Of a DNA stretch of 64,000 nt, positions 15,550 through 52,433 are shown in pieces. Source of the stretch: Raja brachyura. Lineage: Eukaryota. Made by a program: the position numbers and the translations under genes. The notes beneath the pieces are model-generated. The model made no database searches. It was not told the DNA's origin and worked only from the letters and a program-made list of their open reading frames with translations. The stretch covers positions 23,684,001-23,748,000 of the forward strand of contig OY740810.1 of assembly GCA_963514005.1 (NCBI GenBank), read 5' to 3'. Position 1 is the stretch's first letter; each line of letters starts with the position of its first letter.

Positions 15550-15612
15550 GAAGTGAGGTCACAGTGAGAGGAGCCCGGGCCGTGGCGGAGCGCGGGGGTG
15601 GGAGCGGGAGCG
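15550..15612 (+). other. Probable non-coding exon 1 of the Arkadia-like gene (5' end approximate)
   Basis: Consensus donor CG|GTGAGT at 15613, just downstream of an ETS site; the first coding exon is preceded by an acceptor at 16497-16498. Confidence 0.6.
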
Positions 15613-15900
15613 GTGAGTGTCGCCGCCGGGACTGGGACTGGGAACGGGTCTGGGACCGGGTGGGGGGCAGGCGGCAGCAGCCGTGCACGACCCCCGCACT
15701 CCATACTCCCGCTCCCCCAACCCGTGCCCCGCCCCTTCCTTCGCCCATTTCCCTCCCCAACCCCGTCTCATCTTCTCGATGACTGCCCCTTCCTTTTGCC
15801 CCTCCTGCCGATTCCTCCCCGACCCCATCTCATGTTGCTCCCTATCTCATCTTCCCTATGACTTCCCGCCTATTTCCTCCTCGTCTATCTCCCCCCCTTT

Positions 15901-16067
15901 CCCCCTCCGCCTATTCCACCCCTTTCCCCCTCCGCCTATTCCACCCCTTTCCCCCTCCGCCTATTCCACCCCTTTCCCCCTCCGCCTATTCCACCCCTTT
16001 CCCCCTCCGCCTATTCCACCCCTTTCCCCCTCCGCCTATTCCACCCCTTTCCCCCTCCGCCTATTCC
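15901..16067. repeat. 25-bp minisatellite (CCCCCTCCGCCTATTCCACCCCTTT) x ~6.7
   Basis: Exact 25-bp period read directly. Confidence 0.95.
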
Positions 16068-16527
16068 CAGGTGCAAATACCCAGCTCCCTGGAAGTGGCA
16101 ACACAAGTGGATAAGGTGGTAAAGAAGGTTGGGTTCAGTGGTCGGGGTATTGAGTACAAACTTGGCAAATATGTTGTTACTGTGAAAAATTACTTTGGTT
16201 AGGCCTCTTTTGGAGTATTGTGTGCAGTTCTGGTCGAATTGGTAGAAGTGTCACAATGACAAGATGGGAAGGTTTTAAAGGTATATGGGCCAAACACAGA
16301 CAAATTGTACTTGTCCGGGTAGGCAACTTGGTCATGTTGGGAAAAAGTGTCTGTTTCAATGTTGCATAGCTCTAACGGCAAGATTGGATGTAAATCTAAA
16401 ACTGGAGAAATTGCACGGGAAAGGATGCAGTCAATTGCATTTGAATTACAGATACTTTTGTGCTATAGAATGTTTTTTATGCATATTTTGCCCTATAGGT
16501 TTCTTTAACATTGGTGTCGCGTTGACA

Positions 16528-16928
16528 ATGGAACCAACAGCAGAATTGCCAGAGATTCCCCTTGCTTCCAGCACAGAGCAAGAACTCAAGGGAACAACAC
16601 CACCAGCTGGCTTGGATGGTTCTTGCCCTTTGCCATTTAATGGTATTATTCAAGACAGCAACCAGGTGCCTTTGAGTCCAGAGGTGAAAGAACAGCAGCC
16701 TGTCCAATGGATGGAGTGTCTGAACCCTGAACACTCCAGCTTCTCAAAGGAACTCAAACTTGCTTTGCAAACTGACAGGCACCTTGTACGAAGTTATACT
16801 TACACAAGCGACGACTCTTCCAGTGCGGGTGAGACATCGCCATCTTCCAGCATCAACCTAGCCGAATCTGATGAACTTCTATCAGAGAAGAATGAGGGGA
16901 GAATGATGATGTGGACGGGAACTGACAG
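16528..16928 (+). CDS. Arkadia-family E3 ligase coding exon 1 (MEPTAELPE...SPSSSINLAESD...WTGTD)
   Basis: Acceptor TATAG at 16498, acaATGg Kozak, SPSSS-x-x-L/F-x-x-SD motif shared with RNF111/ARK2N N-termini, donor AG|GTAGG (phase 2). Confidence 0.8.
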
Positions 16929-17635
16929 GTAGGAGCAACAAGCTTAACAAACAATCTGATTGAAAGGAGAGAACTGGAGAATAATATTGGTTAAACACCA
17001 ATTGGTTGGTTGGAAGAATAAGCAGGTATAATATTTTTAATCACACAGGTATCACCTGATAATGTTTTCCTCCACTTGCTCATGGCCATTCAAAACACTA
17101 CGCAGCACTATTTATTCAAATGATCTGCTTGCAAAGAAATACATATGCTGGTACAACTTCCGGTTCTGAGCCCCATTTGGATTTGCCTAAATCAGTTGTT
17201 AGGTCAGGTGAACAATTTTTATTCAACCACGTAATGGATCATAAGGTCATAAGTGATAGGAACATAATTAGGCTATTTGGCCCATCAAGTCTACTCCAAC
17301 ATTCAACCATGGCTGGTCTATCTCTCCCTCCTAACCCCATTCTCTTGCCTTCTCCCCATAACCCCAGACACCCGTTAGGACATTAGAATGGACATAAAAT
17401 GCTGGAGTAACTCAGCGGGTCAGGCAACATCTCTGGAGTACCCCCTGAACACTTGGTGATATTAGTACCAACACATCAGGTGTGTAGTGATCTTTTTAGT
17501 GAAGGGAGAGTGCATAAATATGGATCCTTGCAGTCTTTGACCATTGCTTCTTGGCTTGTGTCTGTTACTGCAGGGAGGTTACAATCTAAGCCAACAAAAA
17601 TGAGCAGATTTAAAAAATAGCCTGGGCACTTCCAA

Positions 17636-50129: not shown

Positions 50130-50257
50130 TAACTATTTTGTCTCTGGCCTGATCACCTACCCAATGCAGAGTCTCAAAGCACTTATGTGGGAGGCACGGA
50201 AAGGGATACATCCAGGTTTGTCTATATTTCTCGTAACTATATTTAATTGCATTTCAG

Positions 50258-50355
50258 AGGACACTGGAGACAAATGAAGATGGGAAAGAAGCACTGGAGG
50301 TTGAGGAAAAATGTACAATCTGTCTGTCACCATTGGAGGAAGGAGAAGATGTTCG
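50258..50355 (+). CDS. Arkadia-like coding exon 12, RING-H2 first half ([18 protein letters not shown])
   Basis: tttCAG acceptor, GTGAGG donor; [17 protein letters not shown] is the Arkadia RING signature. Confidence 0.95.
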
Positions 50356-51924
50356 GTGAGGAAGCACAGAAGAATTGTAGTTTGTTCAGATTGCCAATAC
50401 GTATGTTGTTTGAATTGGTATCGAATATACCAGGATTGTGGTAAAGGTGCAAAATCTCACGGTTTTATGCAGCTGCAACATGACTTGACGATTTCTATAC
50501 TACACCTCGATCGATGAAGTATACTTTCTTTACCAGTACTTGTGTTGCTATTTTGAGGGAACTCCAGACTTAAATCCCCAAATCTCTCTCAACATCAATG
50601 TTTTTAATAGTCTTGCCATTGACTATATACTTGCCCCTGACATGTGACCTCCTACATTGCAACACTTCACTTGTCAGGATTAAACTCCATCTTCTGTTTT
50701 TCTGCCCATATTTTCAACCAGTCAGAATAATACTCTTCCACCATTACCATCTATCTTCAGTGGGCAAGCCAGTTTTGAATCCAATCTACAAAGTCAGAAG
50801 GGATACTTTTATCTTCTGGCTGATCTACCATGAGAGGGCCATGGCATCTTTCCTATAGCAGAGTGACGAAAACTGAACATAATACTCCCAAGTGTTGCCC
50901 TATGTCTTGTAAACTGTAACATGATGTCAAAAAAATCTATATTCATTTTTCTGATTGATGACTGATTAACTGTGAATTAGGAAGGCAGACAATAGTAATT
51001 GCAAGAAGATTTGAGTTCAAGAGTATTAACATCCTGCTGCAGTTATATATGATCATGGTGAGACCGCACCTGTGATATTGTGCACGGGTCTGGTTTCATA
51101 ATGTATAATTTCATAATTGAATTGAATTGAATTGAATAATCTAAAGGAGTATGTACCTGTGGTAGGAGTGCTGTTCAGTTCACCAATTGATGCTGGGATG
51201 GCAGGGTTTAATGTGCAAGGGGAGAAAGTATCAGAATCAGAATGCCTTTTATTGTCACTATACACATGTACAATGAGATTAAAAGCTGCTCCTACTCAGT
51301 GCAAAAACAAAACAAAAAGGGGGGGGGGAATAAGGTGCACAGTTTCTGCAGCGCTATATACATATCGATAAAAAGACAATGGATAAATAGAATGGATAAT
51401 AGGATTCCTATATCCAGTATGGGTTATTGCACATATTGGAAATTGCAGTTACAGTACAAATTACAGTAGGTGGATAGATGAAAGTCCGGGGGTTAGGCTG
51501 TGAAGTCAATGCATGTGTGAGTTCAGGGAGATAATGGATTTTGGAAAGAAACTGTTCTTGAGTCTATATTCAGAATGAAAGAATGAAGTACAGAATGAAA
51601 GCACCATCCATTTTTTGTTCTAGATTCCAGCATCTGAAGTTTTGTTTTGAAATGCTCAAATTTGGATGAACGAAAGGTGATCTCATTGAAACTTTTTTTA
51701 GGCATAAGTGCAGGAATGATACTTCCCTGGCTGGGAATAAAAGAGGGGAAAAACTGTTGATGCTGGAAATCTAAAATAAGAACACGTGTTGGGGATAGCA
51801 GGTTGGGAAGACAATCGGAGCTGGTCAAAGAAATGTATGTGTAGAAAGCAACTGGTTCATACTGATGATAGACACAAAGTGCTGGAGCAACTCAGCAGGT
51901 CAGGCAACATCTCTGGAGAAAAAA

Positions 51925-51962
51925 GATGTTAACGTTTCAGGTTGAGACCTTTCTTCAGACAG
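51925..51962 (-). ncRNA. Minimal type I hammerhead-ribozyme-like core in a Penelope-derived repeat
   Basis: Minus strand reads GT-CTGAAGA-A-AGGT-CTCA-ACCT-GAAA-CGTT: intact CUGANGA and GAAA boxes, 4-bp stem II, palindromic stem III. Confidence 0.5.
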
Positions 51963-52315
51963 AAATGTATCCTCCGGTTGGGTATTTAAAACCAGGAATT
52001 GAGTTTCCATATGAAGGATGTGTCATTCTGGACAACCTGGAGAGCAGAGGCTGAGTCATTGGATTTTGGGGGTATTAGTTGCAGGAAGGTATTGTGCAGT
52101 GGAATAGGTGCTAGGGTCACACTATTACTTGTGCTTCCATGTCTTATCACAGCACAATGTGATGCATTATCATATACAAATCTCTTTGAGATAAAGCACC
52201 TCCACCCATGATCTGATGACCTATCTTTGATAATGTTTAACCAATAAGATGACACAAATAGCAATGGATATTGAAGTACCTGGTCAATCAAAACACTGTT
52301 TATTGTTTATTCCAG

Positions 52316-52433
52316 GCGTCTCCCTTGTATGCATCTCTTCCACCAGATTTGTGTGGATCAGTGGTTAGCCACCAGTAAGAAGTGTCCAATTTGTCGAGTC
52401 GACATTGAAGCACAGCTGCCAGTTGAAACCTAA
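52316..52433 (+). CDS. Arkadia-like terminal coding exon, RING-H2 second half ([38 protein letters not shown])
   Basis: ttcCAG acceptor; completes C3H2C3 RING; TAA at 52431-52433. Confidence 0.95.

Follow-up and report, generated by a model that had tools for sequence, protein, structure and literature searches.

A whole third Arkadia-family gene beside RAB8A in the skate Raja brachyura, a likely sister of ARK2N/ARK2C from the second round of genome duplication and a predicted SUMO-targeted ubiquitin ligase

The stretch of DNA analyzed here (the window) comprises 64,000 nucleotides of the skate Raja brachyura (contig OY740810.1, positions 23,684,001 to 23,748,000, on chromosome C32) and carries, next to RAB8A, a whole gene of the Arkadia family. 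The gene would be a third member beside RNF111 (Arkadia) and the split locus formed by ARK2N (C18orf25, ARKL1) and ARK2C (RNF165, ARKL2). The joint reading that we favor, an unsplit third Arkadia gene that is likely the sister of ARK2N/ARK2C from the second round of genome duplication (2R) and is predicted to encode a SUMO-targeted ubiquitin ligase (STUbL), has a probability of roughly 0.78 in our estimate.

That this is a distinct third Arkadia-family gene is close to certain, because the same genome contains a full RNF111 on chromosome C36 and a split ARK2N/ARK2C on C1. In a genome search with the last coding exon, the window scored 83 bits, C36 73 bits, and C1 72 bits, and the next of the 13 matches scored 39 bits; a search with the family PF15303 found RNF111 on C36 and ARK2N on C1. 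Genome searches scored the best candidates only, and there was no fourth Arkadia copy among these. C36 holds a complete RNF111 model of 930 amino acids (aa) at a separate locus. C1 holds an ARK2N of 413 aa with its own stop and, 38 kb further on, an ARK2C of 344 aa with its own ATG, followed on the opposite strand by a multi-PLAT gene; Loxhd1 follows mouse Ark2C (PMC3627648). A preliminary description of this stretch, made from the letters alone, had named separate RNF111 and ARK2N/ARK2C loci as something to look for, and both are present. Its view of the protein as a mosaic of RNF111-like and ARK2-like residues did not hold: the supposedly RNF111-like LEEGEDVR and IEAQL are found in chondrichthyan ARK2C too and are therefore shared ancestral residues, not marks of RNF111. 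The ARK2C of this skate (C1, 28.08 to 28.105 Mb) has changed fast, with MIEK for TIER and LAC for LPC, and ARK2C is also fast in Callorhinchus (P0324, branch 0.6 to 0.8); constraint was perhaps relaxed owing to the extra paralogue.

The gene has 13 coding exons between 16528 and 52433 on the forward strand, with one terminal stop and 12 of 12 introns GT..AG and phase-compatible, which bears out the 13 exons and 956 aa first proposed. Coding blocks were outlined by aligning shark and ray homologues back to the window, and splice sites were then set exactly. The long product of 956 aa uses the exon-7 donor at 36524 and the short one of 917 aa the donor at 36407; among relatives, the long form is seen in P0126 and the short form in five of the nine proteins displayed. 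P0126, which is 98.6% identical to the model (934 of 947 aligned residues), is known only from an assembled sequencing run, in which it lies on a 3,800-base contig, and it agrees with the model across all 12 coding junctions. Upstream, a 5' exon ending at 15612 joins 16499, and the resulting frame gives the first 19 residues of P0126 bar one GS repeat and one substitution. The cluster of P0126 includes Leucoraja, Amblyraja, and Rhinoraja proteins; 11 of the 15 listed among its 23 members come from run assemblies, and 9 of these are 965 aa long on contigs of 3.3 to 6.1 kb. P0126 alone was aligned in full; against the model, the others have scores of about 1,900 bits. With a gene extending over 36 kb and no coding exon above 436 bases, such contigs are most readily taken as spliced transcripts from close relatives, so that the N- and C-terminal exons, whose joining the first account had left to be confirmed, appear together in full-length spliced products.

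The likeness of the gene to its relatives is not due to chance, because the last exon is 94.7 to 97.4% identical to shark and ray proteins (E about 1e-19) and the C terminus matches human ARK2C structures (E 5.6e-38). A six-frame search placed the motifs quoted earlier on the forward strand between 16858 and 52404, where expected, and missed the loose pattern QNTIER.TF; QNTIERYTF lies in the exon at 49533 to 49628. The exons of the gene are as follows.

15550..15612, + strand: 5' exon, start approximate, donor GTGAGT at 15613; its junction to 16499 fits the start of P0126
16499..16928, + strand: coding exon 1, ATG at 16528, SPSSS..LAESD block, from homologue alignment and the splice model
22261..22604, + strand: coding exon 2, basic RTQKQK..RE..IRRK block and serine run (Arkadia N terminus)
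27530..27659, + strand: coding exon 3, SIM1 EDDILVVE at aa 253 and SOB-like SDSEVEIINIV at aa 278
27905..28029, + strand: coding exon 4, SIM2 EVVDLTLDD at aa 324, phase-1 donor at its end
32577..32780, + strand: coding exon 5, start of the lysine-poor middle; missing from isoform P0081
35096..35490, + strand: coding exon 6, CCxQxC patch and His/Gln-rich stretch
36221..36524, + strand: coding exon 7, long form; alternative donor at 36407
38391..38826, + strand: coding exon 8, Pro/Gln-rich, CSVYQ tandem repeat at 38690 to 38781
39569..39689, + strand: coding exon 9, PPRLH block
47638..47736, + strand: coding exon 10
49533..49628, + strand: coding exon 11, DLLHLE, NHGA (NRGA in RNF111), and TIER
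50258..50355, + strand: coding exon 12, acidic loop and first half of RING-H2
52316..52433, + strand: coding exon 13, second half of RING-H2 with Met923 and Arg945, stop TAA

The CSVYQ(Q) coding repeat of exon 8 has 3 copies here, 2 to 3 in skates and rays, and 7 to 8 in sharks and Callorhinchus, and it has no counterpart in RNF111 or ARK2C.

Phylogenetic trees suggest that the third gene is probably the sister of ARK2. The main trees used 173 to 176 C-terminal columns, as the outgroups share too little in the N-terminal half. With 45 rows and 176 columns, support was 100/100 for the third clade, 95/84 for ARK2C, 83/95 for RNF111, and 84/79 for the third clade with ARK2C. A set of 29 rows (the 45 minus both hagfish, a frog duplicate, two long outgroups, and 11 redundant or poorly aligned rows) raised the last value to 99/96, and the approximately unbiased (AU) test rejected both other pairings (p 0.021); with 30 rows, the Shimodaira-Hasegawa-like approximate likelihood ratio support for this grouping was 91. 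The third clade joins ARK2C in each of three IQ-TREE trees and in the FastTree tree. The latter tree, built on the 238 RING-bearing of 285 rows, contains a 19-row third clade composed of the window protein and chondrichthyan proteins, with a pangolin fragment next to it (support 71). In the best trees, the protein falls in neither the RNF111 nor the ARK2 clade, and nesting with the skate's own RNF111 is rejected (AU p 0.0008). The vertebrate side is separated from invertebrate relatives at 100/95 and 98/95, and two hagfish fragments lie unresolved at the vertebrate base.

The chromosomal neighborhood is consistent with this placement. Its nearest marker is the divergent neighbor:

2584..15100, - strand: RAB8A, ATG at 15100, last exons past the left end of the window; synteny marker

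RAB8A was named as the adjoining gene from the start, and this is borne out by one exon that is 29/30 identical to human Rab-8A chains, compared with 3/30 differences for the genome's other RAB8 on C41. It starts about 450 bases from the 5' exon of the third gene, head-to-head, across a CpG island (15101 to 15700, 73% G+C, CpG observed/expected ratio 0.78). Beyond RAB8A lies a CIB gene whose best match is CIB3, with CIB2 close behind, and a BTB gene starts about 18 kb past the third-gene stop, giving the order CIB3, RAB8A, third gene, BTB gene on C32. This chromosome also carries tropomyosin, MED26, and a MEF2-type MADS box. An exon at about 23.826 Mb beginning MFSRKKRELIKTPS, which we take to be the start of ARHGAP45 (human 19p13), has no Pfam match. 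Pfam gave no match for three of the five neighboring open reading frames, and FAM32A, tried as a further marker, had no match in the genome or in the controls and is hence uninformative.

The paralogue of chicken C18ORF25-W, that is, ARK2N, lies on chicken Z. A W copy of C18ORF25 with a paralogue is given in a table of chicken W genes (PMC4053838). In the little skate, Cib3 (20.57 Mb), Rab8a (20.61 Mb), and Btbd2-1 (20.67 Mb) lie on Leri_29C, where Tpm4 and Med26 are found too, with Rnf111-1 on Leri_33C and Rab8b on Leri_36C (PMC10115646, SI Table 10). Within linkage group C, SI Table 3 of that paper assigns LER33 plus LER36, equivalent to chicken chromosome 10 (GGA10), to segment 1-alpha, GGAZ to 2-alpha, and LER29, equivalent to GGA28, to 2-beta. 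C32 and the genes on it match LER29 and chicken 28, the 2-beta segment. With C32 on 2-beta and chicken ARK2N on Z (2-alpha), synteny predicts that the third gene is the 2R sister of ARK2, which sharpens the original proposal of an ohnologue on the RAB8A paralogon. That proposal also placed human RNF111 on a RAB8B-bearing chromosome; in the skate, RNF111 (C36) and RAB8B (C41) are separate, and the part that stands is that C36 and C41 together match chicken 10.

Intron structure points to a whole ancestor. Of the 12 introns of the third gene, 11 have counterparts of matching order and phase in RNF111, and for 8 of these the flanking sequence matches too; the first intron of the third gene is peculiar to it, and RNF111 has one more phase-2 intron. 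The SIM2 exon ends in a phase-1 donor in both genes. ARK2N lacks this donor and reads on to a stop, which occupies an equivalent position in the skate (LTLDEDARRRYLL, then the stop) and in teleosts (LTLDDDARHKYLL), and the split is therefore older than the divergence of sharks and bony fishes. A SIM- or SOB-like motif and a RING occur in one chain in 7/7 invertebrate-type relatives examined, which together with the introns and donor shared with RNF111 indicates that the whole form is ancestral. A whole gene with RNF111 phases across the break must thus have branched off from ARK2 before the latter was split. These observations support fission of ARK2 over fusion of RNF111. A published study suggested that RNF111 may have been assembled from two adjacent genes and found one Arkadia member per group in 28 vertebrates (PMC5764321); a whole gene that is likely the sister of ARK2 and keeps the exact donor where ARK2N stops argues, contrary to that suggestion, that ARK2 was cut.

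The third gene is thus very probably a 2R ohnologue, and the best trees and the shared ARK2N stop speak for a duplication that probably predates the split of cartilaginous and bony vertebrates and postdates the invertebrate outgroups, with an origin from ARK2C within chondrichthyans unrejected by the tree test alone (p 0.057). One ancestral SIM and RING gene would have given rise to RNF111, on the 1-alpha segment, and to another copy that may have doubled at 2R into ARK2 (2-alpha, chicken Z) and the third gene (2-beta, chicken 28). In ARK2, the donor behind the SIM2 exon would then have disappeared, leaving two genes, and the third copy would have remained whole, diverged fast early on, and later been lost in bony vertebrates.

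The three SIM-like motifs, TIER, and intact RING-H2 announced in the preliminary description were all located, as SIM1, SOB, SIM2, NHG-TIER, and RING-H2; SIM1, SOB, and SIM2 were matched to human Arkadia motifs via alignment with RNF111 proteins. These elements, the Met associated with a second ubiquitin, all eight zinc ligands, and the linchpin Arg are kept in 19/19 third-clade proteins examined, and the combination of several SIMs with a RING in one polypeptide is the STUbL architecture. The RING-H2 domain (aa 904 to 945) has eight ligands with Arkadia spacing, PF13639 is found in P0126 (6.6e-15), and the best PDB matches of the C terminus are ARK2C and Arkadia. The xxG-TIER block LNHGATQNTIER at aa 865, before the RING, aligns with ARK2C structures. 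By alignment, Met923 and Arg945 correspond to ARK2C M313 and R335, the regulatory ubiquitin site and the linchpin, respectively (PMC8897509). In the alignment, YQDLL stands at the place of the CTL-class YEELL, which reads YEDLL in the skate's own RNF111. From skate to chimaera, the last 173 columns of the alignment show almost no variation. Upstream, the N-terminal half aligns to RNF111 at E 1e-23, and coding exon 3 is 41% identical to the RNF111 exon on C36. The middle region has 3 lysines in 503 aa; lysine amounts to 0.4 to 0.7% of the middle versus 4.4 to 5.1% elsewhere in 6/6 third-clade proteins, and the RNF111 middle, described as lysine-free (PMC8161396), has none in 4/4. Sequence outside the RING looks disordered, and RING structures exist for close relatives.

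By analogy with its relatives, the product is likely, as a prediction, a STUbL. In human Arkadia, the SUMO1 cap is read by SIM1 and SOB, and SIM2 is essential for every SUMO substrate tested (PMC6695498). On a nuclear substrate, SIM1 and SOB of the third protein would accordingly bind the SUMO1 cap and SIM2 a SUMO2 in the chain, and the long lysine-poor middle, offering few self-ubiquitination sites, may bridge the substrate and the catalytic end. TIER and RING-H2 would hold UbcH5~ubiquitin closed, aided by a second ubiquitin at Met923 and by the linchpin Arg945, so that the substrate would be chained and then degraded. A role against Smad repressors (Ski/SnoN, Smad6/7), again by analogy, is plausible and weaker, because all third-clade proteins examined have NHG in place of NRG and a weaker basic stretch follows TIER.

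Several observations weigh against the history proposed above. With 45 rows, the AU test rejects neither other pairing (p 0.19 and 0.15), and the strong sister support depends on dropping 16 rows, including hagfish and long branches; the third-clade stem is long (0.56 to 0.73), and a clade with chondrichthyan ARK2C alone stays unrejected (p 0.057). Raw scores are nearer RNF111 than ARK2 (C half 171 versus 152 bits, N half 87 versus 72), which fits slower change in RNF111. ARK2 lies here on C1, the largest chromosome, and SI Table 3 gives LER3 as Z-like and queries "LER1-mid" as 1-beta (PMC10115646). Accordingly, the gene might be a genome-duplication ohnologue that is nearer RNF111 or outside both clades; this is suggested by the raw scores, by the groupings unrejected with 45 rows, and by the SIM1/SOB exon, which as a genome query matched RNF111 and not ARK2N. 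We consider this quite improbable, given that every tree places the third clade with ARK2C, that the 29-row set rejects both alternatives, that synteny independently predicts the ARK2 pairing, and that the RNF111-like residues are ancestral. Still less probable is a duplicate of the ARK2 precursor that arose in cartilaginous fishes only and moved beside RAB8A. It would account for the confinement of the gene to these fishes and for the unrejected clade with their ARK2C; however, ARK2 was already split before sharks and bony fishes diverged, a later copy could not be whole with RNF111 intron phases across the break, and a chance landing on the expected paralogon would be required. We give next to no credence to the idea that the gene is simply an RNF111 or ARK2 orthologue that diverged or moved, or that two neighboring genes were falsely joined. 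Such a view could draw on the database name "Arkadia-like" and on fragments in Pristiophorus and Rhincodon, one labeled "ARK2N-like"; however, both other loci are intact, P0126 spans all junctions, and nine 965-aa proteins lie on contigs far shorter than the gene.

Turning from the history of the gene to the function of its product, points against an Arkadia-like STUbL are the PF15303 score, which is below the cut-off of 27 (20 bits, E 5e-4, in two skate proteins; absent in Callorhinchus, with a precomputed match in several sharks), the failure of the PF15303 genome search to find the window, the reading NHG in 9/9 third-clade rows versus NRG in 8/9 RNF111 rows, and a basic stretch after TIER that reads HKYEKRT versus HKYKKRK. 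With the same history, the product could be a ligase of little activity, a decoy for SUMO chains or E2 that dampens RNF111, or a protein of SUMO quality control only that has left the Smad pathway. The changes at NRG and after TIER, a conserved RNF111 block (PHPHRMHPNYGHG) without clear counterpart, and the report that NRGA and TIER are necessary for pSMAD2/3 binding and full E2 engagement (PMC9501438) favor this view. We nevertheless think it unlikely, because the zinc ligands, TIER, Met, and linchpin Arg are kept in all third-clade proteins examined and the C terminus hardly varies; moreover, NRG varies in ARK2C too (NRG in 7 of 16 rows), and its deletion did not eliminate auto-ubiquitination in vitro (PMC9501438).

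Orthologues of the third gene were named in at least 20 cartilaginous species, including sharks, rays, skates, and Callorhinchus (62% identical), with fragments only in Heptranchias, Pristiophorus, and Rhincodon; database labels are "Arkadia-like" or "uncharacterized," and one fragment is "ARK2N-like." The searches included a first homologue search, in which 120 of 1,045 matches were examined, and a profile search over 1.84 billion representatives, from which the best 150 were taken. Among the 332 proteins collected, 39 score best to the window protein, none of them named for a bony vertebrate, and one nameless protein is a three-way tie. When a shark orthologue's N-terminal 345 aa served as query, 7,979 candidates yielded 20 matches, namely, 18 cartilaginous fishes, P0126, and one teleost RNF111 (33%). 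Of 7991 candidates screened for shorter, split forms of the gene, 8 matched, four of them chondrichthyan-type fragments and four teleost ARK2N; the fragments are no sign of a split. Judged from protein searches rather than genomes, the gene was likely lost in all bony vertebrates sampled. This loss appears broader than the mammalian one suggested earlier.

A partial 127-aa protein of the pangolin Manis javanica (P0277, named RNF165) may speak against complete loss in mammals. Its divergent Arkadia-type RING matches both the window protein and mammalian RNF111 at 42/54 positions and is not confidently nearest any clade, with no grouping rejected (p 0.07 to 0.26). As P0277 is placed nowhere, mammalian loss may be incomplete; a remnant of the third gene and a decayed retrocopy are both possible. 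Two Arkadia-like pseudogenes are noted on mouse chromosome 3 (PMC3627648, Figure S1 legend); they may be retrocopies or represent a dead fourth ohnologue. The frog protein P0162 (Pseudophryne corroboree, 494 aa, "Arkadia-like") was considered as a bony-vertebrate orthologue and rejected, as its N-terminal motifs follow RNF111; the tree leaves its position open. It is a short, fast-evolving, unsplit SIM and RING copy, apparently derived from RNF111.

Compared with RNF111 (994 aa in human), the third gene has the same single chain with a basic, serine-rich N terminus, SIM1-SOB-SIM2, a lysine-poor middle, TIER, and RING-H2, and likewise 13 coding exons. It differs in being about 37% identical overall to a teleost RNF111, in having its own clade and chromosome, in reading NHG for NRG, in a Gln-rich middle with the CSVYQ repeat and less His and Pro, in an extra intron in the first coding block, and in an SOB-SIM2 distance of about 46 aa versus about 60 in human RNF111. 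With ARK2N and ARK2C it shares WLATSKK, LA[ED]SD, and VVDLTLD, and the C-terminal tree and paralogon make ARK2 its best-supported sister. In contrast to the whole third gene, which is found only in cartilaginous fishes, ARK2 occurs in every jawed vertebrate sampled and is divided in two, the first gene stopping behind SIM2 and the second having a start of its own. Mouse Ark2C is neural and specific to Smad1/5/8 of bone morphogenetic protein (BMP) signaling (PMC3627648). Invertebrate Arkadia proteins (Acanthaster, Holothuria, Glandiceps, and others) likewise combine the RING with a SIM- or SOB-like motif in a single chain; they form the tree outgroup, have no clear SIM1, and are reportedly encoded by one gene per genome (PMC5764321). 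Nineteen ohnologues are reported as kept in chondrichthyans and lost in bony fishes, and beta segments as faster evolving (PMC10115646). The third gene, located on a beta segment, has the same retention pattern and may be one of the 19; the name Rnf111-1 hints at a second annotated copy.

RefSeq already has automatic "Arkadia-like" models of the third gene, and a literature search, which left most subscription papers outside its scope, found no description of it. The preliminary suggestion that the gene was possibly uncharacterized thus stands for the papers searched and fails for the database. Cartilaginous fishes are already known to retain ohnologues, and nothing points to new chemistry. 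The papers examined treat vertebrates as having two Arkadia loci. The product of the third gene is a natural test case for two questions: whether the pair of ARK2N and ARK2C works as a split SUMO-targeted ligase, as asked in PMC6695498, and why Arkadia serves Smad2/3 and Ark2C serves Smad1/5/8 (PMC3627648). We speculate, with considerable doubt, that the third protein is a living unsplit ARK2 in which the reading of SUMO chains and an ARK2C-type RING may couple SUMO to BMP-Smad1/5/8, a combination lost in bony vertebrates or rebuilt there as ARK2N plus ARK2C, with the pangolin RING fragment perhaps its last mammalian trace.

Other features of the window include an ETS-type site (CCGGAAGT) at 15547 in the CpG island between RAB8A and the third gene; ETS-type sites are typical of two-way promoters. 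The first intron contains a 25-base tandem repeat (15873 to 16067, 7.8 copies, 97% alike). Reading frames at 29690 to 31068, 44550 to 45233, 52885 to 53427, and 60085 to 60880 resemble what we take to be reverse transcriptase/endonuclease fragments of long interspersed nuclear elements, and the fragment at 52885 to 53427 sits just downstream of the third-gene stop.

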